From positions 30,001-62,000 of the forward strand of contig JBHLRO010000022.1 of assembly GCA_048882505.1 (NCBI GenBank): a stretch of DNA of 32,000 nt, written 5' to 3'. The notes beneath the pieces are model-generated. The model was not told where the DNA came from. It was given only the letters and a program-made list of their open reading frames with translations, and did no database searches. The stretch comes from Candidatus Thorarchaeota archaeon (GTDB taxonomy: Archaea; Asgardarchaeota; Heimdallarchaeia; Hodarchaeales; Hodarchaeaceae). Position 1 is the stretch's first letter, and each line of letters opens with the position of its first letter. Below, piece after piece: positions 3 through 32,000 of this stretch. The translations under genes and the position numbers were made by a program.

Positions 3-665
3 AAAAACACGCCCAAGGAACAGGAGGAGGTTTTTTATCTCCTTGGCGAAAACTTAGATACCCTTAAGAGGAGTCCACATCTGGAACACTATAATAAACT
101 TGATCAAGAAGTTATCCTTTTTGATGAACCGGTTGATACTTTCGTTATGACTCATATAACAGAGTATAAGGACAAAAAGTTCAAACTAGTAGATCAAGCG
201 GAACCTGAACCCGAGTCTGAAGAAAAGAAGGAGGAGGAAGGCGAAACCAAGGAGAAGGAACCCGAAAAAGATAAACTATTATCAAAAATGCTCGAGGTAC
301 TGGGAGACAGAGTTGTTGACGTTCGTTACACAGATCTTTTAACTGAAAGCCCGTGTCGGCTTGTAAGTCCAAGTGGAACCGGGACATTCACGCGAATGCT
401 CAAGTATATGGACGAGAATTATATTCCCCAGAAGAAGATCCTTGAAATAAATCGTAATCATCCCTTAATAAAAGGGCTCGATCCTAAATCCCCTATGTTT
501 TCGCTAAAGACGTTTATGTTGCTGGAAGGTCAAGAATTGTTGGAGGGAATCTTACAGAATCCCACGGACATGGTCTCGCGAATTCATGAATTAATGATGA
601 CGAATGTCAGCTCACAGTTACAGGACAAGGGGAAGGCAGGAAAAAAGAAGTCAAAAAAGAAGTAA
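3..665 (+). CDS. htpG: Hsp90/HtpG chaperone, middle and C-terminal part (5'-truncated by the window edge)
   Basis: The frame is open from position 3, upstream of the Met at 147: KNTPKEQEEVFYLLGENLDTLKRSPHLEHYNKLDQEVILFDEPVDTFVMTHITEYKDKKF. This matches the Hsp90 'IYY.TGE...SP.LE......EVL...DP.DE......EY..K.L' segment. Later motifs are LTESPCRLV and KKILEINRNHPLIKGL. Confidence 0.93.
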   Translation, partial: KNTPKEQEEVFYLLGENLDTLKRSPHLEHYNKLDQEVILFDEPVDTFVMTHITEYKDKKFKLVDQAEPEPESEEKKEEEGETKEKEPEKDKLLSKMLEVLGDRVVDVRYTDLLTESPCRLVSPSGTGTFTRMLKYMDENYIPQKKILEINRNHPLIKGLDPKSPMFSLKTFMLLEGQELLEGILQNPTDMVSRIHELMMTNVSSQLQDKGKAGKKKSKKK

Positions 666-3636: not shown

Positions 3637-5235
3637 ATGTCTAAGACCGTATGGACAATGACAGTAGATAGCCAAGATGACGCAATTCAAATCCTTTATT
3701 TCAAGGGTGAACACTGTGCCCCGTGTAAACCCGTGGAGAAGCATTTGAAACGGATAGTTGAAACAAGTCAAGGGAAAGCCCTTATGACGACCATCGACAC
3801 GGATGAACATGCTGAAATTGCTTCTCGATACGGCGTCAAACAGGTTCCACACGTCTTATTCAATGAGGAGATAGTGCTAACTGCAGGGCAAGCCAGTGGA
3901 ATGGTGGGCTTTGGTGAATTTGACCAGTATGACTTATTCAATTACCTATTTAACAAGCTGATTGAGGCTGGGGTCAAAGCAAGCGAAGCAGAACGAGATC
4001 GCTGGCGAAAATTGTCGATTATCACAGTGTCTGAACGGTTGATAAATGTAGAAGAAAGTGGTATTGTAACAAGACCCTCAGTAGGAGATTATGTTCATAT
4101 TGGGCATCTTCAATCAATCGTAACGTCTTTACTAGCTATCAATCCTTCCGCCAAAACATACCTATTTCGCGCGGGAGAGATGGCCGGAAAATTCGGCGCA
4201 GCGCAATCTTGGCTCGGACGCTATAACCCGAACATTATGTCCACCAATCGGATGGGTGACCGATTCAAGGAGGTTTTGAAAGGTTTTCGAGTTCTTTACG
4301 GTAAGAATCCCATGGAATCAAAGGTAGCGTCGGAGTTGAACTACACCCAATCCTCTCCATATCACGCCACGCTTAAGATCATGGGTTCTGCTCATGCCGT
4401 TCGGAACTCCGAAATTGGGCAAGATGTTTGTGGGTTCTTGGCCGGGGAGATTTCAGGATTGCTAGAAGTCACCTTGGGAGAAAAAGCGGCGGTAGTTGAG
4501 ACTAAATGTTGGGGCCTTGGACATGACCATTGTGAATTCGATATACGGCTGAATGAAAACTCAGATCACTATTTAGTTCCCTTCTCCAATGCCAAGGAAT
4601 TTTTTGGAACAGATGACCGTCTTCGATTCGAGCTATCCCTCGCTGAAATCTCGAGAAATATGTTTGATTCGATCTTACGTCGTCCTTACGGACTTTTGCG
4701 ACCAGATATTGGAGATTACATCCATATTTCCTCTCTCCAACATATTCTGACCTCATTGAAATTCTCAGATCCTTTCAATTCTACACTCCTCTCCTATGCA
4801 GGATTACATTATGGACAAATACTGGAGGATGTAGGTATTATTTCAAGGATTATGACACGCCGCAATCTCAAATATTCTTTTCCCATGGAATTTGATCAGG
4901 CATGTGAGGTTCTTGGATATTACTTTAGCACACCTGGAATGATATATGCTCGTATCCACGCAGATATGACTGTTGAGATGAAGGATGACGAAACAGCGAT
5001 CTTTAAAATGTGGGAGAGCGCTGCCACTTCTGGTATTGATCTTTCAACCGTTGATTTATCGGCACTATTCCCTGGAACGGAAAAACCTGCTACCATAAAC
5101 ACGTTGGATGATTTCATGGCAGGTTTTATCAACGGTCGTTTGGATTTATTGGTGGAGGAAGATGTGATTGTTCATGAAGCACGTTGTCAGGCTAGCGGGC
5201 ACCCGTATTGCGAATTCGTAGCGGAACTAGACTGA
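3637..5235 (+). CDS. Thioredoxin-like domain fused to two V4R (4-vinyl reductase) domains
   Basis: N-terminal YFKGEHCAPC (CxxC) and cis-Pro motif VKQVPHVLF. Two repeats: RPSVGDYVHI...CGFLAGEISG...ETKCWGLGHDHCEF and RPDIGDYIHI...DFMAGFING...EARCQASGHPYCEF. Confidence 0.85.
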   Translation: MSKTVWTMTVDSQDDAIQILYFKGEHCAPCKPVEKHLKRIVETSQGKALMTTIDTDEHAEIASRYGVKQVPHVLFNEEIVLTAGQASGMVGFGEFDQYDLFNYLFNKLIEAGVKASEAERDRWRKLSIITVSERLINVEESGIVTRPSVGDYVHIGHLQSIVTSLLAINPSAKTYLFRAGEMAGKFGAAQSWLGRYNPNIMSTNRMGDRFKEVLKGFRVLYGKNPMESKVASELNYTQSSPYHATLKIMGSAHAVRNSEIGQDVCGFLAGEISGLLEVTLGEKAAVVETKCWGLGHDHCEFDIRLNENSDHYLVPFSNAKEFFGTDDRLRFELSLAEISRNMFDSILRRPYGLLRPDIGDYIHISSLQHILTSLKFSDPFNSTLLSYAGLHYGQILEDVGIISRIMTRRNLKYSFPMEFDQACEVLGYYFSTPGMIYARIHADMTVEMKDDETAIFKMWESAATSGIDLSTVDLSALFPGTEKPATINTLDDFMAGFINGRLDLLVEEDVIVHEARCQASGHPYCEFVAELD

Positions 5236-8586: not shown

Positions 8587-10200
8587 ATGGCAACTAAATT
8601 ACACCCGACAACACAATTCTATCTGTTTTTAGCCCTTCTTATAGGGGTTGTTATTGGCTCTGGAGGAGGCTTCATTATGTTTTCAATAGTCAACCCTAAC
8701 CAACCTGCTAGAGAAACAGTAACTTTTGACATCGGAGCTTATCAATGGGGCTTTGATCCCAATAGAATTGAAGTAAAACTCGGAGACCACGTGGTCTTGA
8801 GATTTTCAAGTAACGCAACTACGGAACCCGCTTACACAAGGCATTCAATTATTATTCAAACCTATAATATAAGCGCTGATTTGCCCGTTGGTCAGATTAC
8901 AATTGTAGAATTTGACGCGACTGTCCCTGGAGAATTTCTTGGTGAATGTGGTATCTTTTGCGGACGAGATCATGCAGCTATGTCTATGACGATCGTTGTG
9001 AGCGGAGCTGAGGAAGATGCTCCTGAACAGGACTTACAACCAGTCACCCAACTTGGCCAAGGTGTTACTGCCGGAACCTGGAATAACTCTGACGTAATGG
9101 TTATAGTCGAGAGAGAAGCCAGATCAATATCGTTTATTGATGGAAGCAGTAATACATACCTCGGAAGATTGTCAGGAATTGGTTATCAACCACATACAGT
9201 TGTGTTTTCTAGTAATTTAACATTTGGCTACATCATCGGACGAGGAGGATGGTTTGTAAAATTTGGTTTGGATGATTTTCAAGCTAAAGCGTGGATAAAA
9301 GTCGGAACTTCAAGTAGAGGAACGGCTATTAGTAACGATGATAACTATGTGCTGGTAAGTAACTATGAGCCGTCAAGTTTCGTGATCGTCAATACAAGGA
9401 CAATGGAAATCGCTAAAGACTACCAAATCCCAATCCCATACGATGAAAACGGAACTACGGAAGGATCCCGGGTTGCATCGATCATTGATACGCCGAACAA
9501 CCTGATGGTCATTGCAATGAAAGATCTAGGTGAAGTGTGGGTAGTTAATATGTCGGAACCGAACTTCCCTGTCGCAAAAATATTCTACGATGTCGGAGAG
9601 GTTCTTCATGACGCATTTTTAACTGAAGATGGACGGTATTACTTCCTAGCTAGTCAGGGGTCAAACTGGATTTGGGTTCTAGATACGGAGACCTTAACAG
9701 AGGTAGCACGGATTACTACTGGAGAAAAACCACACCCTGGTCCAGGTGCACTATGGGGTGATTTGGCTTTCTCACCATCTATTGGTGAGGGAAGATTAAA
9801 CATTTGGAATACCACTTCATTTACGATGCACAGAAATATTACACACGGTGGTCCGGGATTGTTTATTCGATCCTATTCCAGAAATGCTTCCTATCCTTAT
9901 ATTTGGTGGGATACCATACTATCCTCCGATCCTGCTGAAAACAGATTAATCCATGTACTCGATGCAAGAACTATAGATGATCCTACTCCACTGATCTACG
10001 ATTTAGCCCCAGGAAACGGATCCCTTCATCCCGAGTTCACCTATAATGGAAAATATGTCTATGTATCACTTTGGCACGAAAGTAAAGTAGTCGTGTACGA
10101 TGCCTACAACTTCAATGATGGGCCAATAACATCATTTATCATTACAACGCCAACAGGGATCTTTAATGCCGGATTACGCGTCGAAGAAGTAGGGCTGTAA
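8587..10200 (+). CDS. Membrane-anchored CuA cupredoxin-cytochrome d1 beta-propeller fusion (NirS-like, no heme c domain)
   Basis: From the ATG at 8587: one TM helix (aa ~11-35); cupredoxin with AYQWGF, H86 and C121-GIF-C125-GRD-H129-AA-M132; then a cd1-type propeller with GYQPH203, SRVASI, VLH341DA, KPH383PGPG, HPEFTYNG and TPTGIFN. Confidence 0.85.
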   Translation: MATKLHPTTQFYLFLALLIGVVIGSGGGFIMFSIVNPNQPARETVTFDIGAYQWGFDPNRIEVKLGDHVVLRFSSNATTEPAYTRHSIIIQTYNISADLPVGQITIVEFDATVPGEFLGECGIFCGRDHAAMSMTIVVSGAEEDAPEQDLQPVTQLGQGVTAGTWNNSDVMVIVEREARSISFIDGSSNTYLGRLSGIGYQPHTVVFSSNLTFGYIIGRGGWFVKFGLDDFQAKAWIKVGTSSRGTAISNDDNYVLVSNYEPSSFVIVNTRTMEIAKDYQIPIPYDENGTTEGSRVASIIDTPNNLMVIAMKDLGEVWVVNMSEPNFPVAKIFYDVGEVLHDAFLTEDGRYYFLASQGSNWIWVLDTETLTEVARITTGEKPHPGPGALWGDLAFSPSIGEGRLNIWNTTSFTMHRNITHGGPGLFIRSYSRNASYPYIWWDTILSSDPAENRLIHVLDARTIDDPTPLIYDLAPGNGSLHPEFTYNGKYVYVSLWHESKVVVYDAYNFNDGPITSFIITTPTGIFNAGLRVEEVGL

Positions 10201-10220
10201 GTATTTTTTAATACAGCACT

Positions 10221-10260
10221 GGCTCATTTTGAGCCCCTATTTTTCTCTTTTCTTTTTTTT
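10221..10260 (+). terminator. Hairpin + T-tract terminator
   Basis: GGCTCA-TTT-TGAGCC followed by a long pyrimidine/T run, 20 nt after the TAA at 10200. Confidence 0.5.
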
Positions 10261-10391
10261 AGCGTTAGATTGGTACTCATCTATAAGGAGCTGATATGTA
10301 CGAATAAGAAGCTGCTCGAAGTTGCCTCAGAAGCTTATGGAGAGAACAATTTAATTTAAATCTCAATTCACCCGAATCTACCCAAATCGCC

Positions 10392-11504
10392 TTAACTGAG
10401 CCGCTGTAATGCCTCAATTACCTTGGATTGTGTTTGCTTCCGCTCTTCTAGTTCTCGTTTGAGGTAATCGATACTCGAGACTGTGCTTGGATCCTTGTGA
10501 TTCAACATGGCCAGGTAGATACTGATGAAGTCAAATAAGTATGTAACAGACAGCAGTTGGCTAAGCAAGTGGACTCCCTTGCCATGGACCTCGATGAGTT
10601 CACACTTTGGACTTACGATTCTCTTACTGATCTCGAAACGTAAACGAACGTATTGATGCTCTGTTGGGAATCGTATCGCCAATACTAGGAAAGGGTAATC
10701 GTTTTTTTCGTACCCTTCCCATCCAACTATATGATTATGGTTTAGTTCGGGTAATTCCTCAGAGATCGCTAGCATCTTTGAATTCTCGTTGAACTGACAC
10801 TTAATTCGATTTGCAACACATCCATACGGGGCCCAAATAACGGGTATTTTTTGAAACAGATTCATCGCGGTATTTTTTGCACTGTTCTCAGGTAAATTAA
10901 CATCAGGACGACATTGATCTCGTATATCTCGAAGGTTATACAATAATTCATCGATTGCGGTCCCTTGCAAACTTATCATATCGAATGATTGAAAAATCTT
11001 CACCAAAGCAAGAAAAATGAGTGGAAACGCTGCTCGTGGTTGAAAACCCCCTGGAATTTCGAAATGTGGTAGGGAATTCTCCTCAAAAAATCTGGTAATA
11101 TAACCTCCTGAAGATATCCCTACAACAGGGCAGCCTTTTTCGAGAGCTAAGAGAAGACAGGACAGGGTTTCCTCAGTGTTTCCAGAATAAGATACCAAAC
11201 ATACTAATGTATCTTTTCCAACAAATTTAGGAAGATTGTAATTCCTAATCACAGTAACGGGAATTTGCAGCGGAAATATTACCTTAACATAATCGCCACT
11301 AACAGCTGAACCCCCCATCCCGCAAATAATGATGCTATTCGGTTTTTCTACATATGAAACTTCGAACTTATCTGTTTTAATGTGAGAAGGTATTGTAAAA
11401 TCACGCGAAAGAAGAACCTCTATCAATTCAGGCAGACTGTACACCTGGTTCAACATGTTTTTGGGATCGTATTCTTTCATTTGAGCCGTATTATTTAAAT
11501 CCAT
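10392..11504 (-). CDS. Bifunctional phosphoglucose/phosphomannose isomerase (SIS-domain PGI/PMI)
   Basis: GMGGSAVSG, SYSGNTEET, GFQPRAAF, QFNENSK, PELNHN. Start set at the ATG at 11504, which has GGAG upstream. Confidence 0.92.
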   Translation of the reverse strand: MDLNNTAQMKEYDPKNMLNQVYSLPELIEVLLSRDFTIPSHIKTDKFEVSYVEKPNSIIICGMGGSAVSGDYVKVIFPLQIPVTVIRNYNLPKFVGKDTLVCLVSYSGNTEETLSCLLLALEKGCPVVGISSGGYITRFFEENSLPHFEIPGGFQPRAAFPLIFLALVKIFQSFDMISLQGTAIDELLYNLRDIRDQCRPDVNLPENSAKNTAMNLFQKIPVIWAPYGCVANRIKCQFNENSKMLAISEELPELNHNHIVGWEGYEKNDYPFLVLAIRFPTEHQYVRLRFEISKRIVSPKCELIEVHGKGVHLLSQLLSVTYLFDFISIYLAMLNHKDPSTVSSIDYLKRELEERKQTQSKVIEALQRLS

Positions 11505-11627: not shown

Positions 11628-12089
11628 ATGCGAGGAACATTCCTCCGACTTCTTAGTTTTCTCGGTGAAACCGGATACTATGCGCGAACGCCAAATGAAA
11701 AAGAAATCTTGTCGGAATTAACTGAAACAGGAGTTGTCCAATTAAAAAAGAGAACGAAAAACGTTTATACACTTACTCGTGAGGGGTATCAGTTGGTTAG
11801 CGAGAGATCAGCGAATACCCCCCAAGTTTCTGATGACCAATTCCTCCAATGGCTAAGAAAAGCTTATCAACAATTGGCCAATCCTCTTAACCCATTGGTT
11901 AAAATACCAGATCTCAGAACTCGATTAAGCACTAAATGTCACGATGCTGTTTTTGAGAAAAAAATGCTGGACTTTCATGATCAAGGAGTCTTGACTCTTC
12001 ACACAGCATTTTCAAAACAACATGCGGAAGGTGGGATAGAATCAAGAACCAAACCTGGGGTATATTACTACGTGATGTTTGAGGCATAG
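11628..12089 (+). CDS. Tandem winged-helix-like protein
   Basis: First wing motif VYTLTREGYQL; second unit LVKIPDLRTRLS...FEKKMLDFHDQGVLTLH...GGIES...YYYV. Ends 5 bp before the ATPase gene. Confidence 0.62.
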   Translation: MRGTFLRLLSFLGETGYYARTPNEKEILSELTETGVVQLKKRTKNVYTLTREGYQLVSERSANTPQVSDDQFLQWLRKAYQQLANPLNPLVKIPDLRTRLSTKCHDAVFEKKMLDFHDQGVLTLHTAFSKQHAEGGIESRTKPGVYYYVMFEA

Positions 12090-12094
12090 TTACT

Positions 12095-13459
12095 ATGAGC
12101 CATCCTGCCACAATTATTACAGAAAATCCATTTCATACCTTTGTTGCACGCCCAGACGTTCCTGTACGTTTTAATCTTAACCGACCCAATCAAATGGCAG
12201 TTGATAATGTCAAACGATTTTTAAAGATAATAAGAGCCAAAAAACGAGAAAACGTCCTTCTTCCAATTATTGCAGAAGCGGGATCAGGCAAAACGCATCT
12301 CTTTCATGTAATTCGGGAAGTTGTGACGGATGCTTACGCAGTATACATTCCAGTCCCCATCAATACCGAGCGGATATTTGCTCATATTTATTTTGAAACG
12401 GTGAAGGCAGGTGGGGCATTGCTTCTTGAGTGGGTAGCGGATTATCTAGAGCAAACTTACAAATCTGTCGAAAACGCAGCTTTGGAATTCCCTGGAATGA
12501 CCAATATAGTAATTACTGGTTTTTTTGCTCTAAAGGATCCTAAACAGGCCAAAATAGCCCTAAAATGGTTAACAGGTTTTGATGTGGACTCTGAGACAGT
12601 CCATTTTAAGCGGACAATAATGGACGATGAAGATCTTGCATTTGCCGCGCTACAATTAATTCTTAGGGTGATTGACAAACCCATTATCTTTTTTATAGAT
12701 GAAGTCGAATCTTTATTTATTTCACAGGGCCCTGAAGCAGAACTTCGGTTTTTGGAGACAATAAAGAAATTAGTTAACGAGGCTTCAAATTTTCTTATGT
12801 GTCTTGCCTGTTTGATCACCCTATGGGATAAAATTCTGGATCTTTCAAGCACTGCATTTCAAGGACGGATTGAACCACCAATTGTGCTGAAACATTTCAC
12901 AAAAGAAGACATAAATGACTATTGTCAATCTGTTCTTCCTGAATTCCACGTTAGGTTTGATATTTCGCCTCCAGATCCTCTGTGGCCATTAGAAAAGGGA
13001 GATATCGAATCTTCATACGCGTACTCACATGGAAATCCTAGAGAAGCTATCAAATGGTTAGCAGGAATAATAGAGAAGAGAAAGATTGCACTTCTGGAAA
13101 CATTGGATACAAATCAACAGTACCTTACTAGAATTGGTTCAAGAGTAAAAACCAAAATTGAACATGTCATCAAAGGTACGGTTGGGCTCCTCCATAAAAA
13201 TCATGGGCTTTTGGTTCCCGTTTCAAATGAAGACCTTCGCATTTTGGTCGTAATACCTCCCCATAACACCGTGTCTGACCTATTTCAGGAATCATTTTGG
13301 GCTGCAGTTGCTCGTAGAACCACAAATGAAGATTATGATAAAATTATCTCGATAGGTGAAGAGGAAGACATGGAACAACAAAAGACCAAGCTAGAATATG
13401 AATATTTTACTGAAGGGGAATTTGAAGAAGGTCTAGCGACAATATTGGACGTCAAATGA
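12095..13459 (+). CDS. AAA+/STAND-like P-loop ATPase
   Basis: Walker A AEAGSGKTH, Walker B IIFFIDEVE, FQGRI arginine region, HGNPRE helical-lid motif. Confidence 0.8.
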   Translation: MSHPATIITENPFHTFVARPDVPVRFNLNRPNQMAVDNVKRFLKIIRAKKRENVLLPIIAEAGSGKTHLFHVIREVVTDAYAVYIPVPINTERIFAHIYFETVKAGGALLLEWVADYLEQTYKSVENAALEFPGMTNIVITGFFALKDPKQAKIALKWLTGFDVDSETVHFKRTIMDDEDLAFAALQLILRVIDKPIIFFIDEVESLFISQGPEAELRFLETIKKLVNEASNFLMCLACLITLWDKILDLSSTAFQGRIEPPIVLKHFTKEDINDYCQSVLPEFHVRFDISPPDPLWPLEKGDIESSYAYSHGNPREAIKWLAGIIEKRKIALLETLDTNQQYLTRIGSRVKTKIEHVIKGTVGLLHKNHGLLVPVSNEDLRILVVIPPHNTVSDLFQESFWAAVARRTTNEDYDKIISIGEEEDMEQQKTKLEYEYFTEGEFEEGLATILDVK

Positions 13460-25998: not shown

Positions 25999-26172
25999 AT
26001 ATCAACCACCTCTCATAAATTTGCTAGAAGAACAGGTACCTATGCGGTAAAAACCAACAATTTGATACCTAAATATCCTTTATTGTCTGATGTGCTATAT
26101 TAGCTTTACCATCCAAACATTGACATAGCGCCGAGGATTTCCACTTGCCTGTACTCTCATAATCAACACAAC

Positions 26173-26754
26173 CTATTTTCTTTTCCTTACTTGCACAACA
26201 TAATAGCTGGTCAAGAATCCTACTGATAGATATGTAGTCAAAAAAAGAAAGCCTCCTAGATCATTAAATTGAGTTATTTGACCTAAAATACTGGGAATTA
26301 AAACTACCCAGGCACCGATTGTGATCCAAGCCATGTAATAATAAAAGGGAGTGCTGGCAGGGATCCCCGTTTCTTCAGGTCTCCAAACTTCCGAATTAAG
26401 AACATGCGCCTCTCTTATCTTGCCCTCAAGGTATCTGTATCTAATATACGCGATGAGGAAGTTTAAACATGCAGTAATGACGCACAAAAGCGCGGCCAAA
26501 AGGCCGTCATTTATTGCGGCGCTTGTGATCACCGTAGCAGGGAGTATTTCTATTAGAAGTCCTTCAAAAACATTAAATGTCGTGTAAATGAAAGATAGGA
26601 AAAATATTAGTATAAACGACCCCTCTAGGATTGAAATTGCCACACCTTGTATGGAATAAATACTCAACATCACCCAGATAGCTCCCATAATCATCTCCAC
26701 TCCAATCAGATATTTTTGCCGTATAACCAGCGGTCCACTTCTAAGTAACCCCAT
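26173..26754 (-). CDS. Hypothetical membrane protein (~5 TM)
   Basis: 193-aa hydrophobic ORF, 3 bp downstream of the zinc-ribbon ORF. Confidence 0.6.
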   Translation of the reverse strand: MGLLRSGPLVIRQKYLIGVEMIMGAIWVMLSIYSIQGVAISILEGSFILIFFLSFIYTTFNVFEGLLIEILPATVITSAAINDGLLAALLCVITACLNFLIAYIRYRYLEGKIREAHVLNSEVWRPEETGIPASTPFYYYMAWITIGAWVVLIPSILGQITQFNDLGGFLFLTTYLSVGFLTSYYVVQVRKRK

Positions 26755-26757
26755 TTT

Positions 26758-26967
26758 TTATCTTCCTTTCCTCAAGAAGCTTCCACATTCCTCGCAGTGA
26801 TATACTTTCATATAGGCCCTTGGAAATGGGATGATTAAGAACAATACAATCCTTAATAAATGGGTAGAACTGGCTGCTGTAAATTTTCTGCAGGTAGGAC
26901 ATTTAATGATTTCGGGCTTAAGTGATTTCCATAACATGAGGGTAAAAGTTCCGAATCCTACTGCCAC
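26758..26967 (-). CDS. Zinc-ribbon protein (zinc_ribbon_15-like)
   Basis: KCPTC...LFLIIPFP...YHCEECG, with the hydrophobic 'LFxIP' hairpin between the two CxxC pairs. Confidence 0.6.
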   Translation of the reverse strand: MAVGFGTFTLMLWKSLKPEIIKCPTCRKFTAASSTHLLRIVLFLIIPFPRAYMKVYHCEECGSFLRKGR

Positions 26968-27752
26968 TTTTCTGGTCCCTCTTGGAGTCTCTTTTCGATA
27001 GAGGTATTGGACGACTTCTAAGCTAGGCCTAATCTAACATCCTTTTTCCATAATCCTATCACACTTTTCAAGCAGATCGGAGAACTATTGTTATGAGTAT
27101 CAACGGACTAATTACGAGTGGACTTGGTTTTCCTCAGGTCTGCTAGAATAGGGGCAGTCTATTATAAACTTAAATGGTTTTTTTCCACGGATGACCCAGA
27201 AAAATATCTCTAGACACTTCCCATTCCTGACAGATATATGCTAACCAGCGAGCTCATACCTTCTCTCAAGTTTTACTTGCTTCTCGGGGTAAGTATCATC
27301 CTATGGGTTCTTTGCTCGCACATTTAGTATCGAAAGGGGTCATTCTTTCAGTTAATGAATAAAATAATGGCACTCTGAGGATATCCGGAATGGTGTTGTT
27401 CGATAATCAAACTTCTATATGTTAAATCAATAATCATTGGTTTTTGGACTAAACATCCGATGTAAAAAACAAGGGAACTCACTTAGAAATACTCCAAACC
27501 TAGCATGCCTAATTCACTGCCAAACCATACACGAAGTGTTAAGGATAAACCTCAGTTATTCTAATCTTCATTTTAAGACTTTTTTCTGTTCTGTGATTGT
27601 AATAGAATTCTTTAAGACCTTTTTTCTAGACCAAATACCTGAATTGATTAAATTATGGAATCAGAAGAAGTAATAATACCAAACACTAAAGGGTTAGTAA
27701 GGGTTTTTAACGTTGATTATGTACACACATTTCTTTATGCTGTTCTCAAAAT

Positions 27753-28598
27753 TTACTTGAGTATGTAGTTTCTTAATTTGACAAAATCGTCTTTCTCCTT
27801 TGCATATATCTCCTTATTACTGTATTCAGCTATTTTTTTGTTGAGAAACATTATTTCTTCTGCATTTGATATTTCGAATTCTACAGGAAAGAGACGTGGA
27901 CTTGTCCTAGTCTTCGAGATGAGAACTGCAGCTATTTTTGGAGACAATGGAAATAGAAATTCACAAGCAATTACTTCTCCATTTATCTTTACACAGCCCT
28001 CTCCGTTAAACGATAGCACTACTGGATTATCGCTTGTAATAAAACTCTGGCTTGTCTTATTCATAAAAAGGATCATATTTTCCTCGTTTATCATATCACA
28101 GATTACCTCTTCTACCCTACTAATCTCCGGTCCTAATTTTTCGAGATAAAAGTCCGCAGGTGATCCAGTTGGATAGGGATTTGGAATAGAAGGAAAAAAC
28201 TGCTGTTCTTGTAGTTTTTTCACATCAAGCTGGTTCTTAGGATTGAATATTCCCATCACATCACGCCAATAACGACCCCGAATCCGTTGATATCCGATAT
28301 AAATATACAAATCCCCTAAACCAGTGTTTAATGTCCCTCTATCTACTATCTGCTGAATAGCAGGAAAGTGCCGGTTTTCTATTTCAGACAGTAGACAATC
28401 AACTTTGTAATTTAGGAAGTGAAATTCCATTGATAGTTTATCAATTTTCTTGGGTTTGCCTATGATATCTATCTTGCTTCTTTTTGTCTCTGCTACCCAA
28501 ATCTTTCTTTTCTCTCTTTCTTGTGTGGGGTCGATTGCAAAATTCTTCAAATATGCTGCTTGCACATAATGCTGCCTTTTTTTCTCTTTTTTAGACAA
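27753..28598 (-). CDS. DUF4238 domain protein
   Basis: N-terminal RQHYVQAAYLKNFA and C-terminal FITSDNPVV...FPLSPKIAAV motifs. TTG start with GAGG upstream. Confidence 0.8.
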   Translation of the reverse strand: MSKKEKKRQHYVQAAYLKNFAIDPTQEREKRKIWVAETKRSKIDIIGKPKKIDKLSMEFHFLNYKVDCLLSEIENRHFPAIQQIVDRGTLNTGLGDLYIYIGYQRIRGRYWRDVMGIFNPKNQLDVKKLQEQQFFPSIPNPYPTGSPADFYLEKLGPEISRVEEVICDMINEENMILFMNKTSQSFITSDNPVVLSFNGEGCVKINGEVIACEFLFPLSPKIAAVLISKTRTSPRLFPVEFEISNAEEIMFLNKKIAEYSNKEIYAKEKDDFVKLRNYILK

Positions 28599-28687
28599 GA
28601 TGTTATCCTCTTCTCCCTATTGTAGTTGATTTTCAATTCGTTCACCCTCATTCTAAGTAGCAAATTTATTTACTTCATTTGAAATAA

Positions 28688-28894
28688 ATGTTGCTATTTC
28701 GATACAAAACTGTTAACAAATGGGATAACGATAAAGACCCAAGTATCCTTCTTAGGATGATGGCCTATATTAGTTTTACCATCCTAATATTGACAATACC
28801 GATAAAGATAACCCATTACCTTTTCTTTTATACCCAGGATTCATCCTTTATAGCTATTTTCAGGTCCGTTTTCGGTTTTGTGATTTTGACATGA
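28688..28894 (+). CDS. Possible small membrane protein or fragment of a decayed gene
   Basis: 68-aa hydrophobic ORF ending 9 bp before the next ORF; no motif recognised. Confidence 0.3.
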   Translation: MLLFRYKTVNKWDNDKDPSILLRMMAYISFTILILTIPIKITHYLFFYTQDSSFIAIFRSVFGFVILT

Positions 28895-28903
28895 GGGACT
28901 GTT

Positions 28904-29290
28904 ATGTTTTGTAATTGGTCTCCCGTACCACGCCAGAACTTGGAACATCACAATCATATGTGTACTTCACTTGATTATTTCGAGAAGATATCATCCTTTG
29001 ATCCTTGGGAAAAGATAAACGCCATCATTTCCATCCTTCAGATGAACATCGGGAAATTGGCGATATTACGGCTATGGCGTAGGGGTCTCCAACCCCTTCT
29101 TTATGCTGCGTATTCACTCTTCTTGGATTATAATGGTACAATCGCCAGACAGACCGCTGGTGCCTTTATGGACGTTTTCTTAGGTTATGAACCAAGCGAT
29201 CTAACGTATATAATGTATGACAAATATGAACTGGCCCTGCAGCGAGGAGAAGCTTTCAACTTCTTTGATTATGCAGAGTACTTTAGCTAG
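28904..29290 (+). CDS. Hypothetical protein
   Basis: 128-aa ORF ending convergently 6 bp from the next gene. Confidence 0.4.
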   Translation: MFCNWSPVPRQNLEHHNHMCTSLDYFEKISSFDPWEKINAIISILQMNIGKLAILRLWRRGLQPLLYAAYSLFLDYNGTIARQTAGAFMDVFLGYEPSDLTYIMYDKYELALQRGEAFNFFDYAEYFS

Positions 29291-29296
29291 TCCATG

Positions 29297-30052
29297 TCAG
29301 CGACGGCCTGAATATAATCTATAGCTCATGTAACTCAGACCACAACCAATTATGAAAATAAATGGGGTAACAATAGGATCGACTGGAGTACTATTGTACA
29401 GCGGTTGAATTTGGGCGACCATCAAGAATGGATGAAAGTAGCTATGGACTCCAAACATCATAAAGATAGCGATTACAATCGTGTGGGGAACGATTTTGTT
29501 TAAGTTGCCATTGATCGCCAAACCAAGACGACCTCTTAAATCAGATATAACGCTAAATCGCGCCTTGATTCTAGCGGAAAACCATGAGTAGTCTGTAATC
29601 CCAAGGATCAAAAGCATCACAAGACAAACCTGAGCTAAGGCAACGAAGATTACTTGCAATATATATAGATTAGAAAAAAAGACCACAATAGCCTGATTAC
29701 TTCGAGAACTTTGGATATGTTCGTCTATCCGCATGAAATAATAAAATGAAATATAACATACCATCAATATGGTAGCAAGAGGGGGAATGAGAATAGACGA
29801 GGCGTTCTCGTTTTCTTGTTCATTGAATAGTCTGATGTAATGATAAATGCTCTGCCCCACTAACATCAGAATCAAAAAGAAGAGTAGTTCGAGAAGGAGT
29901 AAGAGGAAGGTTAGTTCTTCTAGCGGAAGAATGGATTCAAACAATAATTTTTCTTGTATCCATATATACGCCGATTCTCCAAAGTATTTTGAATTAGGTA
30001 TTTCTACAACGCTAATAGCCAATGAGAGACTGAGAAATATATTAAGCCCCAA
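29297..30052 (-). CDS. Hypothetical polytopic membrane protein
   Basis: 251 aa with about 6 TM segments; overlaps the upstream ORF by 11 nt. Confidence 0.55.
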   Translation of the reverse strand: MGLNIFLSLSLAISVVEIPNSKYFGESAYIWIQEKLLFESILPLEELTFLLLLLELLFFLILMLVGQSIYHYIRLFNEQENENASSILIPPLATILMVCYISFYYFMRIDEHIQSSRSNQAIVVFFSNLYILQVIFVALAQVCLVMLLILGITDYSWFSARIKARFSVISDLRGRLGLAINGNLNKIVPHTIVIAIFMMFGVHSYFHPFLMVAQIQPLYNSTPVDPIVTPFIFIIGCGLSYMSYRLYSGRR

Positions 30053-30374
30053 AGCTACACAAACCTAGCCAAATTACCTTCGATAAAGAAATTGGTAGTT
30101 TTTTGGGATCCACTTGACGTCTCATTCTCAGGCCCTTTACACCAAGTAAAATTCCAATGCCTATAAATAAAAAAACGTACCATTCGTGGAAAATAAGGAG
30201 AAGACGGGAAATAACGGCACAAATCGCTCTAAGTTGGAAGATCTCTACATTGCTCCCTATGCGGGCATGGTTGGTGAGGATTCTGTTAAAAATGATAAGG
30301 TAATTGAATAGTAGAGGTAAACTACCCGTCAAACATAGTAAACTTCCGATAGTATAGGCATTAGACCGGTTCAT
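30042..30374 (-). CDS. Hypothetical membrane protein
   Basis: ATGA start/stop overlap with the 30371..30907 ORF; 2-3 hydrophobic segments. Confidence 0.5.
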   Translation of the reverse strand: MNRSNAYTIGSLLCLTGSLPLLFNYLIIFNRILTNHARIGSNVEIFQLRAICAVISRLLLIFHEWYVFLFIGIGILLGVKGLRMRRQVDPKKLPISLSKVIWLGLCSFGA

Positions 30375-30907
30375 TCAACGTTAGGCCTCACATCAATTGG
30401 GGGAACCCATCCCAAGTTGTATCCCTTGGATGTTTCGTAAGCTAGTTTCATTACATCCGTCCTGTCAGTTTCATAACCCCAATTCAGATAATCACCAAGA
30501 ATTGTAGACAATCTACGCTTAAAATCCACTGGATTCAATAAAATCTCAAGTTTTATCATAAAAAGGTCTTTTCTTTCATAGTCGAACAAGAAAAGGATTA
30601 TCTTATACTCTGTCATTTGGAGAGCACAGAGACAGTGATAAGAATCATTTTCAACTAGGATCTCCCAGTTTTTTGTCCTTTTAATCTCTTCCCAAATGGG
30701 CTTTAGATCTATGTGGGAGTTGAAATCAGGAATAAATTGGTATCTGATCCAATTTTGATTTTTGATCTGTTGATCTTCTGTAATTAGCCTAAATTCAGAG
30801 AAATCACGATGTTCAGGATTATGCGGGTCTTGACGAAATCCGCTTGTCTGTATAAACACTTCTAAATCTTCGACAGACTTTAAATTCTTGAATTCTTGCA
30901 TCTTCAT
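30371..30907 (-). CDS. Hypothetical protein
   Basis: 178-aa ORF with a globular composition, coupled to the downstream ORF by an ATGA overlap. Confidence 0.62.
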   Translation of the reverse strand: MKMQEFKNLKSVEDLEVFIQTSGFRQDPHNPEHRDFSEFRLITEDQQIKNQNWIRYQFIPDFNSHIDLKPIWEEIKRTKNWEILVENDSYHCLCALQMTEYKIILFLFDYERKDLFMIKLEILLNPVDFKRRLSTILGDYLNWGYETDRTDVMKLAYETSKGYNLGWVPPIDVRPNVE

Positions 30908-30975
30908 TCCTACCCTAATTCTCCATTTTTATTTGGAATAATCCATCTTTTATACTTTACAGACCCCAGAGTCAA

Positions 30976-31542
30976 TCAATTGAAATTGAATCCATCTCTT
31001 GATTGAGGTTTGATATTCTTAAGTTCATCTTCAATGCGAAGAAGAAATTCTTTATATATCTTTAAAGTGATATCATAGACCGCTAGCATCTCCGATACGA
31101 TTTTGCGTAATTCTTCGTCGCATATAGATTCATCAGAAATTAATTTCCCTCTGAGATCTCCTAAACTATTCCTATATCTTGTTAATTCTTGCACATGATA
31201 TTGAGTTCTATCTAATGCTAATTTTTTAGGATTTAAATTAAAGTAATAACGAGTTTTTCCTCTTTTTCCTTTTTCAGGTGAAATGGCGCAACAGTACTTT
31301 TCATTAACCATTTTCGTTAGAGTTCGGCTTACCGTACTTACTGAAAGGTCACGAGCAAAATTTTCATTGATGAAGGTCAGTATTTTCCGCTGATCAAGAC
31401 TATTCTCTTCTGATCTGGCCTTTAAAAAAAGCAAAGCGAATATTCTGCCGAAGTTTCTGGATCTTCGAGAAGCAAAAATTCCGCCATAGAGCTCGACAAA
31501 CTCTTTCTCATATTTTGTTAGAGTATAATCAGGATCAGGGAT
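30976..31542 (-). CDS. GbsR/MarR family transcriptional regulator (start codon uncertain)
   Basis: The frame is open upstream of the track's TTG at 31434: IPDPDYTLTKYEKEFVELYGGIFASRRSRNFGRIFALLFLK...LDQRKIL...SVSTVSRTLTKMV...KTRYYF. Confidence 0.72.
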   Translation of the reverse strand: MPDPDYTLTKYEKEFVELYGGIFASRRSRNFGRIFALLFLKARSEENSLDQRKILTFINENFARDLSVSTVSRTLTKMVNEKYCCAISPEKGKRGKTRYYFNLNPKKLALDRTQYHVQELTRYRNSLGDLRGKLISDESICDEELRKIVSEMLAVYDITLKIYKEFLLRIEDELKNIKPQSRDGFNFN

Positions 31543-31625
31543 GGTTCCAACACTTCCAAATGATTAAACGCTAGTTATGACCAGAAAGTCACTTACTAAA
31601 TCCGCGGTACAATGTATTTATAGAA

Positions 31626-31775
31626 ATGACCGAGAACGATATATTTAAAAAGATTTTTGCATTGCAACGAAACGCAATTGATGTGAAAAAGATGGATTAT
31701 ATTGCACTACTTCCGCAATTGTATCAATCTAAGCAACTGAAAAAGAGAAAAGAAGCTGTTTTACAGGTATGGTAA
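31626..31775 (+). CDS. Putative 49-aa small ORF (not in the ORF track)
   Basis: MTENDIFKKIFALQRNAIDVKKMDYIALLPQLYQSKQLKKRKEAVLQVW*, ending 6 nt before the next ATG. It could instead be promoter DNA. Confidence 0.3.
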   Translation: MTENDIFKKIFALQRNAIDVKKMDYIALLPQLYQSKQLKKRKEAVLQVW

Positions 31776-31781
31776 TGGAAA

Positions 31782-32000
31782 ATGAAGAGTATTCAACAAG
31801 AGGAAAAATACATCTTTACTTTTCGAGAAATTAAACCAGAAATGCAAAAATTGGCAGGAGGAAAAGGAGGTGCTCTTGCCCGTCTTTTGAACGCAGGATT
31901 CCCAGTTCCTGATGGTCTAGTTATTACTCCAAAGGCATTTGAGGAGGATCAGTTACTTCCAGAGGTTTGGAAACAAGTTAAAACTTACCTTAAAGGTGTG
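31782..32000 (+). CDS. PEP/pyruvate-binding domain protein (PEP synthase / PPDK_N ATP-grasp family), 3'-truncated
   Basis: From the ATG at 31782: MKSIQQEEKYIFTF...LAGGKGGALARLLNAGFPVPDGLVITPKAF, the canonical GGKG..L..L...G.PVP.GF motif. Confidence 0.85.
   Translation, partial: MKSIQQEEKYIFTFREIKPEMQKLAGGKGGALARLLNAGFPVPDGLVITPKAFEEDQLLPEVWKQVKTYLKGV

Follow-up and report, generated by a model that had tools for sequence, protein, structure and literature searches.

Cytochrome cd1 nitrite reductases of the NirS type (P. aeruginosa 1nir, P. pantotrophus 1aof) carry a haem c domain, through which single electrons enter, N-terminal to an eight-bladed d1 propeller. The dihydro-haem d1 dehydrogenase NirN (6rtd) and the d1 biosynthesis protein NirF (6tv2) share the propeller and its two iron-facing histidines, and both act in the haem d1 pathway; NirN bears haem c, whereas NirF has no redox domain and in some species is tethered to the membrane. 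CuA cupredoxin domains are built into other enzymes: that of COX2 docks on COX1, and in NosZ the propeller, with its CuZ site, comes first and the CuA domain last. In a 32,000-nucleotide stretch of the genome of a Candidatus Thorarchaeota archaeon, an Asgard archaeon of the Heimdall group (GCA_048882505.1, contig JBHLRO010000022.1, positions 30,001 to 62,000; hereafter the window), one gene joins such parts differently, with a predicted CuA cupredoxin fused upstream of a haem-type propeller of the cd1 family. Like NirS, its product has a one-electron entry domain in front of the propeller; unlike NirS, that domain is a CuA cupredoxin instead of a haem c domain, and the protein is membrane-anchored. 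We give an even chance to the reading that this protein faces outward from the membrane and belongs to the NirS lineage, as a haem-containing reductase of small molecules that receives its electrons through CuA, with nitrite favoured as substrate by homology and O2 as the main alternative.

The translation of 8587-10200 is free of stops over 537 residues. The longest open reading frame (ORF) opens at TTG 8464; homologues all start at ATG, and the 537-residue gene call in a syntenic relative of 94% identity agrees with the ATG start. An AlphaFold2 model computed from a 14-sequence alignment (predicted local distance difference test, pLDDT, 83.5; predicted template modelling score, pTM, 0.74) contains a helix (residues 7-34) and a beta-sandwich (44-139), then an acidic linker modelled as disordered, and the propeller (Table 1). 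The modelled helix and a hydrophobic stretch in the sequence agree with the N-terminal transmembrane anchor of an original prediction made from the letters of this DNA. That prediction also placed every ligand residue exactly (H86, C121, C125, H129, M132, H203, H341, H383), the nucleotide positions that it gave being right, and we verified in the translation its statement that CxxCH is absent and that C121 and C125 are the only cysteines. Its estimate of about ten N-x-S/T sequons is likewise accurate: ten were counted, against 4.2 +/- 1.8 in shuffled sequences (p ~0.005). The sequon excess points to an extracytoplasmic location, and from it we infer a topology in which the domains beyond the anchor would lie outside the cell.

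Searches with family models recover the cupredoxin domain only around their thresholds. In a Pfam hmmscan of the protein, Cupredoxin_1 (26.2 bits, cut-off 27) and COX2 (20.4 bits, cut-off 22) match residues 31-136; in a six-frame genome search COX2 (PF00116) reaches 22.6 bits, above its cut-off of 22; and in NCBIfam only the CuA-bearing C-termini of the NosZ and CoxB models match the domain, far under their cut-offs. The domain aligns to the CuA domain of Thermus ba3 oxidase (6ptt, 2cua; E 2e-9 to 1e-7), with the histidine, the C-x3-C-x3-H-x2-M loop and the methionine all in register, and all ligands align with those of the cupredoxin domains of ba3 subunit II (2cua, 1ehk) and NosZ. The complete binuclear CuA ligand set that had been proposed is borne out by the ba3 alignment and by the invariance of the ligands among homologues, which together show, at the level of sequence, a complete CuA cupredoxin fused N-terminally to a d1-type propeller. 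The spacing of 35 residues between the first histidine and the first cysteine is the same as in ba3 (H114/C149).

The propeller is recognised with much greater ease: Cytochrom_D1 (Pfam PF02239) covers residues 166-528 (E 1.9e-61, 208 bits), and the top Foldseek matches of the AlphaFold2 model are NirN 6rtd, NirF 6tv2 and NirS 6tpo/1nir/1aof, with template modelling scores of 0.6-0.86. In HMMER alignments R176, H203, R219, R244, H341 and H383 fall on R156, H182, R198, R225, H327 and H369 of P. aeruginosa NirS. The haem-axial and two distal histidines of the original prediction (H203, H341 and H383) thus coincide with the NirS triad, and three of the four arginines that hold the tetrapyrrole carboxylates in NirS are also kept (R176, R219, R244). 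H203 further corresponds to H48, the iron ligand of NirF (10.1101/2020.01.13.904656).

We placed the propeller with a residue table and two trees, reading a signature at positions 203, 341, 383, 386, 428 and 481 (Table 1) and taking as named references the NirS, NirF and NirN sequences of plasmid-borne, annotated nir clusters in Pseudomonas mandelii, Ruegeria pomeroyi and Thermus. The signature of the CuA-propeller protein marks out a large, non-canonical radiation; when the trees are rooted on canonical NirS, NirN and NirF fall inside it as long nested branches. The nesting of NirF agrees with its description as an 'internal outgroup' in a broad NirS phylogeny (PMC10999283). The second distal histidine is kept only in NirS and in this radiation, NirN having Asp and NirF Tyr at that position. 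The protein described here differs from NirN in having His at 341, no CxxCH and no accompanying d1 genes, and from NirF in having a CuA domain, H341 and R244, where NirF has Ile. On these residues we regard the propeller as one that carries the NirS catalytic histidines on a NirN-like background. Grouping with NirF or NirN and a lack of histidine conservation had been named in advance as outcomes that would speak against the proposed enzyme; the first holds by half, and the second clearly does not hold.

Table 1. Features of the CuA-propeller gene (window positions), residue signatures of the propeller families, and the cupredoxin genes beside homologue P0012
Feature	Position	Strand	Basis or remark
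Whole CuA-cupredoxin/d1-type propeller gene	8587..10200	+	537 residues, ATG start, stop 10198-10200
N-terminal hydrophobic helix, about residues 7-35, predicted membrane anchor	8605..8691	+	AlphaFold2 helix 7-34; hydrophobic stretch in sequence
CuA cupredoxin domain, residues 42-139	8710..9003	+	Cupredoxin_1/COX2 and NosZ/CoxB CuA matches; ba3 alignment; AlphaFold2 beta-sandwich
H86, first CuA histidine ligand	8842..8844	+	ba3 alignment; invariant in 14-sequence alignment
CuA loop C121-x3-C125-x3-H129-x2-M132	8947..8982	+	C121 = 8947, C125 = 8959, H129 = 8971, M132 = 8980; ba3 alignment; four residues invariant in 14-sequence alignment
Acidic linker between cupredoxin and propeller, residues 140-165	9004..9081	+	low pLDDT at 141-146; length varies in alignment
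Eight-bladed cd1-family (Cytochrom_D1) beta-propeller, residues 166-537	9082..10197	+	PF02239 and Foldseek
H203, equivalent of iron ligand NirS H182/NirF H48	9193..9195	+	HMMER alignment, residue tables, 10.1101/2020.01.13.904656
H341 (LHDA), equivalent of NirS H327 distal catalytic His	9607..9609	+	Tyr in NirF, Asp in NirN
H383 (KPHPGPG), equivalent of NirS H369/NirF H238	9733..9735	+	alignment, residue tables
Signature of canonical NirS			H-H-H-R-K-(Q/H)
Signature of NirN			H-D-H-S-R-H
Signature of NirF			H-Y-H-G-x-H
Signature of the CuA-propeller protein			H-H-H-P-R-H
642-residue CuA/Fer4_5 polyferredoxin and 140-residue stand-alone CuA cupredoxin	L006:4377-6734		beside homologue P0012

The fusion recurs well beyond this genome. 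Its nearest relative, at 94% identity, carries the NCBI annotation Candidatus Heimdallarchaeota and has the same order of genes around it, and 12 further homologues of 40-54% identity carry both domains (one annotated as Poseidoniaceae, the others from unassigned metagenomic lineages). Across the resulting 14-sequence alignment (40-94% identity) no substitution occurs in the five CuA ligands, the His triad, R176, R219, R244 or D342. A 13.9-kb Logan contig from the probable source sample spans 8677-10600 across the CuA/propeller junction, and a Logan contig from a second, independent study spans 8701-9348 over the same junction with one mismatch. The distribution within the host's group is patchy: among 40 relatives searched, the gene was found in one other species of the 21 in the genus and in one sister-family genome.

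What precedes the propeller varies among its relatives. The sister clade of the CuA proteins (99/99 by the Shimodaira-Hasegawa approximate likelihood ratio test, SH-aLRT, and ultrafast bootstrap, UFboot) is a large Patescibacterial family of proteins of ~694 residues, in which an N-terminal multi-helix membrane domain and a cytochrome b5 domain are followed by a propeller with 37-44% identity and identical key residues. These proteins share with the CuA fusion the H-H-H-P-R-H signature, the position of the redox module and hosts without haem synthesis (ALAD is absent in G042); they differ in using haem b5 rather than CuA and in having several transmembrane helices rather than a single anchor. 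Searched exhaustively with phmmer, 1.84 billion cluster representatives yielded 47 clusters at E <= 1e-30, most of whose representatives, like the Patescibacterial b5 fusions, keep the key propeller residues. Their N-termini comprise CuA domains (P0131, P0139, P0151), two cupredoxins in tandem (P0136), b5 domains (P0123, P0125, P0135), a cupredoxin together with cytochrome c (P0142) and, in many cases, cytochrome c alone; others bear unknown domains. Because CuA, b5, cytochrome c or multicopper-oxidase-like modules stand on one propeller clade, the front domain behaves as an exchangeable redox module, and this modularity fits an electron-transfer role for it. In two cytochrome c-fused members with the H-H-H-P-R-H signature, P0161 (on an archaeal contig) and P0137, a NirJ/AhbC-family radical-SAM gene follows immediately (347-388 bits), so the signature does occur beside genes of the d1/haem-modifying radical-SAM family.

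The Patescibacterial b5-propeller family includes P0020, P0027, P0029, P0036, P0068, P0095 and about 100 more clusters (loci L031 and L032). Its N-terminal membrane domain has no Pfam match, and we rejected its identification with the CopD-like neighbour of homologue P0006 (E 0.36). The multicopper-oxidase-like module occurs in P0122, another of the 47 clusters, a metagenomic protein of 746 residues in which a two-domain module with Cu-oxidase_3/_2 matches and HxH motifs stands with a d1-type propeller; it has no type-1 Cys, scores only 48.8 bits with the NirK model and groups with the CuA clade in the tree. On the Natrinema thermotolerans plasmid CP031304.1 (L026:7161-9112) lies an unannotated, frameshifted d1-type propeller gene of 33% identity with no obvious redox domain.

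In the mechanism that we favour, a one-electron donor, either a small cupredoxin or a membrane polyferredoxin-CuA protein such as the neighbours of homologue P0012, would reduce CuA, and CuA would hand the electron to a haem in the propeller hub. The His341/His383 pair would then protonate a small oxidant bound at the haem; reduction of nitrite to NO is the best guess by homology, with O2 as the chief alternative. Downstream of P0012 come a 642-residue CuA + Fer4_5 polyferredoxin membrane protein and then a 140-residue CuA cupredoxin, with a hemerythrin gene upstream. The two CuA proteins are a possible all-copper relay from the membrane to the CuA-propeller enzyme; the arrangement resembles the quinol-to-reductase relays of nos clusters and speaks for electrons entering a terminal reductase through CuA. 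The Poseidoniaceae-type homologue P0006 has a respiratory setting, with a CopD-like gene next to it and a COX3-COX2-COX1 operon at a distance of ~1.2 kb. The host genome encodes a related polyferredoxin of 749 residues (G000 C6:158.8-161.0 kb), in which a CuA domain was not detected. Like the topology, we infer the direction of electron flow, the identity of the haem and the substrate.

Several observations weigh against this reading. Within the propeller, NirS R372 is replaced by Pro (P386), positions 428 and 481 hold R and H as in NirN rather than the K and Q of NirS, and the best PDB sequence scores go to NirF (2e-37) and NirN (5e-35), ahead of NirS (8e-18). Nor does the sequence fix which way electrons flow, and in NirN they run the other way round. 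The host genome (G000; 4.3 Mb in 83 contigs, 94.5% complete) yielded neither ALAD nor HemC (porphobilinogen deaminase); tblastn of it with NirE, NirD, NirL, NirG, NirH and NirJ gave nothing specific, and a NirJ orthologue is absent, the best model score being 50 bits against a cut-off of 515. ALAD was also absent from all seven carrier genome records searched, some of which may be close kin: G000, G016, G023 and the genomes of P0006 (Poseidoniaceae-type), P0020 (Patescibacteria-annotated; G042, L031), P0002 (Heimdall) and P0012. The host genome has no molybdopterin oxidoreductase, and so no Nar or Nap to supply nitrite, and its only haem-copper oxidase is of the A type, so that no nitric oxide reductase (NOR) would remove NO; given these two absences, nitrite respiration is not backed by the genomic context. 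Nor do nitrogen-cycle genes adjoin the gene in the window, in the syntenic relative or in the Patescibacterial loci examined.

The cofactor is the central difficulty. The original prediction had noted that the window contains no haem d1 biosynthesis genes, and the same is true of the whole genome. With ALAD, HemC, NirE, NirDLGH and NirJ all missing, haem d1 cannot be made by the host, and because tetrapyrrole biosynthesis is missing from the host and from every carrier genome checked, haem must be scavenged. Three supplies had been envisaged, namely a cofactor made elsewhere, a scavenged cofactor or a different tetrapyrrole; home-made d1 now falls away and scavenged haem is favoured. With the canonical cofactor unavailable, haem b is more likely to be used than haem d1, and the presumed activity would then require haem b to work in a d1 pocket. 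The host in any case appears to handle haem. An A-type COX2-COX1-COX3-COX4 operon (G000 C17:43.5-46.9 kb; L029) and a short gene for the haem A synthase CtaA (G000 C27:11.4-11.8 kb; L033) indicate that it uses and modifies haem, and from its gene content we predict that the organism lives aerobically or microaerobically as a haem auxotroph, importing haem and modifying it. Most of the genus would likewise be respiring haem auxotrophs, with ALAD missing in 20 of 21 congeners, closed genomes included. A Cytochrom_C_asm (CcsA/CcmF-like) gene is also present in the host genome, for which reason we rejected the explanation that CuA took the place of haem c for want of cytochrome c maturation in the host.

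The hybrid copper/haem reductase originally proposed consequently stands in part: the fusion, the ligands and the modularity speak for it, and the lack of a d1 pathway, of Nar and of NOR, together with the non-canonical propeller, speaks against it. The description of this enzyme as a third design beside NirS and NirK was overstated. Rather than a nitrite reductase of a third kind, the gene encodes a cd1-family variant whose propeller is of the NirS lineage, whose redox module has been swapped and whose cofactor supply is unexplained. We entertain, tentatively, a broader proposal: that such proteins form a widespread and unrecognised branch of the NirS lineage in which cytochrome c was replaced by CuA (in Asgard, Poseidoniales and other archaea) or by b5 (in Patescibacteria), with scavenged haem in the d1 pocket, and which carries out nitrite, NO or O2 reduction at the surface of haem auxotrophs.

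The same architecture and chemistry could instead serve to remove O2, H2O2 or NO, as a CuA-fed (in Patescibacteria b5-fed) surface haem oxidase or peroxidase of microaerophiles and fermenters, a role that we consider unlikely but the strongest of the competing ones. cd1 NirS also turns O2 into water, and CuA, a high-potential centre, suits high-potential acceptors. The host, with an aerobic A-type oxidase and neither nitrate reductase nor NOR, would fit such a role. So would three neighbourhoods: the Poseidoniaceae-type homologue P0006 has the COX operon at its side, P0012 lies beside the hemerythrin gene, and in the Patescibacterial locus L031 AhpC/Redoxin and HSP20 genes are found 1.5-8 kb away, in non-adjacent positions. 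These neighbourhoods are, however, weak and inconsistent with one another, the distal His pair cannot tell nitrite from O2, and the support is indirect throughout.

A role in tetrapyrrole handling, resembling those of NirN and NirF, is improbable in our estimate. External haem would here be the substrate or cargo, and the redox domain would oxidise or reduce it during capture, modification or hand-over, as an adaptation to haem auxotrophy. The cytochrome c domain of NirN draws electrons from the bound tetrapyrrole (cf. PDB 6rtd). NirF and NirN are the nearest solved relatives by sequence and nest within the same radiation, and R428 and H481 are shared with NirN. The carriers, all seven lacking ALAD, belong in part to groups in which haem auxotrophy is common, namely Patescibacteria, marine group II and Asgard archaea (Kim et al., 10.1101/2021.01.11.426183); most relatives that lack the gene are also ALAD-negative, however, so the link to auxotrophy may reflect lineage only. 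The second distal His, which NirN and NirF have both lost, is strictly kept here and points to chemistry on a small molecule at the iron, and no haem-transport genes were seen in the neighbourhoods of the window, P0006 and P0012 loci.

Far less probable still is an all-copper enzyme on the logic of NosZ, with the domain order reversed and the hub histidines binding a copper site rather than haem. It would explain the occurrence of the gene in haem auxotrophs, and four hub histidines are invariant (H203, H341, H383, H481). The top NCBIfam match is the lactonase-type NosZ model, and language-model neighbours in the ESM Atlas are clusters of NosZ-like propellers with cupredoxins (0.88-0.91), but structure neighbours in the same Atlas are D1 proteins. 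The NosZ models, including that of the lactonase-type clade III, score 59.7 (in three stretches), 29.9 and 16.3 bits against cut-offs of 700, 625 and 625, whereas the propeller is an eight-bladed Cytochrom_D1 match of 208 bits. A CuZ-type site needs seven histidines, more than the four present; the arginines that hold the tetrapyrrole carboxylates in NirS are invariant here; and the b5-fused relatives need haem regardless. Finally, although the source is a metagenome-assembled genome in 83 contigs, the notion that an assembly chimera or a mis-called ORF joined a COX2-like gene to a propeller gene has next to no probability and is refuted by the syntenic relative, by the 12 further homologues from other lineages and sources and by the junction-bridging contigs of two studies, so that the fusion originally described is real and conserved.

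Full-text literature searches, which gave partial coverage and are not proof of novelty, turned up no paper on a protein of CuA-d1 or b5-d1 architecture. PMC8756737 notes, only in passing, that some nirS ORFs of Chloroflexi contain cupredoxin domains. Surveys of nirS cover 24 bacterial phyla and Hydrothermarchaeota (PMC10999283), and in that broad phylogeny the words cupredoxin, cytochrome b5, Patescibacteria and Asgard do not occur. Patescibacterial genome papers list 'nirS' from automatic annotation only, and database labels, also automatic, read 'cytochrome D1 domain-containing protein' or 'nitrite reductase (NO-forming)/hydroxylamine reductase'.

If the CuA-fed reductase is active, copper would be the entry point for electrons in a cd1-family enzyme, and the d1 propeller would be a catalytic cassette that can be combined with CuA, b5 or c-type modules. 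The carrier lineages (Asgard archaea, marine group II and Patescibacteria), which cannot make haem, abound in sediments, oceans and groundwater and do not figure among the producers of nitrite or NO. Were the broader proposal of a widespread branch true, these supposedly non-denitrifying haem auxotrophs would gain a surface reduction of nitrite, NO or O2 that nirS/nirK surveys have missed. The protein thus raises the questions of what occupies a d1 pocket where d1 is not synthesised, how haem auxotrophs equip extracytoplasmic haem enzymes, and whether nirS surveys have passed over a whole branch. Even if inactive or merely haem-binding, it would still mark a conserved surface protein of haem auxotrophs.

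In the window and in the syntenic relative the neighbours of the CuA-propeller gene are housekeeping genes only (geranylgeranyl reductase, PGI/PMI, M16 peptidases); two Patescibacterial loci show no informative operon, and no tRNA or Rfam element was found within the window. A 5'-open ORF at window 3-665 (+) occupies, by synteny, the position of a 633-residue HSP90-family gene (HATPase_c_3 + HSP90) in the relative (L008), near which a Roadblock/LC7 ORF also lies; an HSP90-family chaperone is unusual for an archaeon. At 3637-5235 (+) a 532-residue protein combines an N-terminal thioredoxin domain with two V4R domains, an unusual architecture that is kept in the relative. Downstream of the CuA-propeller gene, at 11628-13459 (+), a winged-helix-like ORF of 153 residues is followed by a 454-residue P-loop protein, which BrxC/D and AAA_22 match weakly; both stay below every Pfam threshold. 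The last part of the window (26000-32000) has a G+C fraction of 0.35-0.39, against ~0.42 elsewhere, and contains a DUF4238 protein gene at 27753-28598 (-) and several short ORFs that match no family; this region may be an acquired island.

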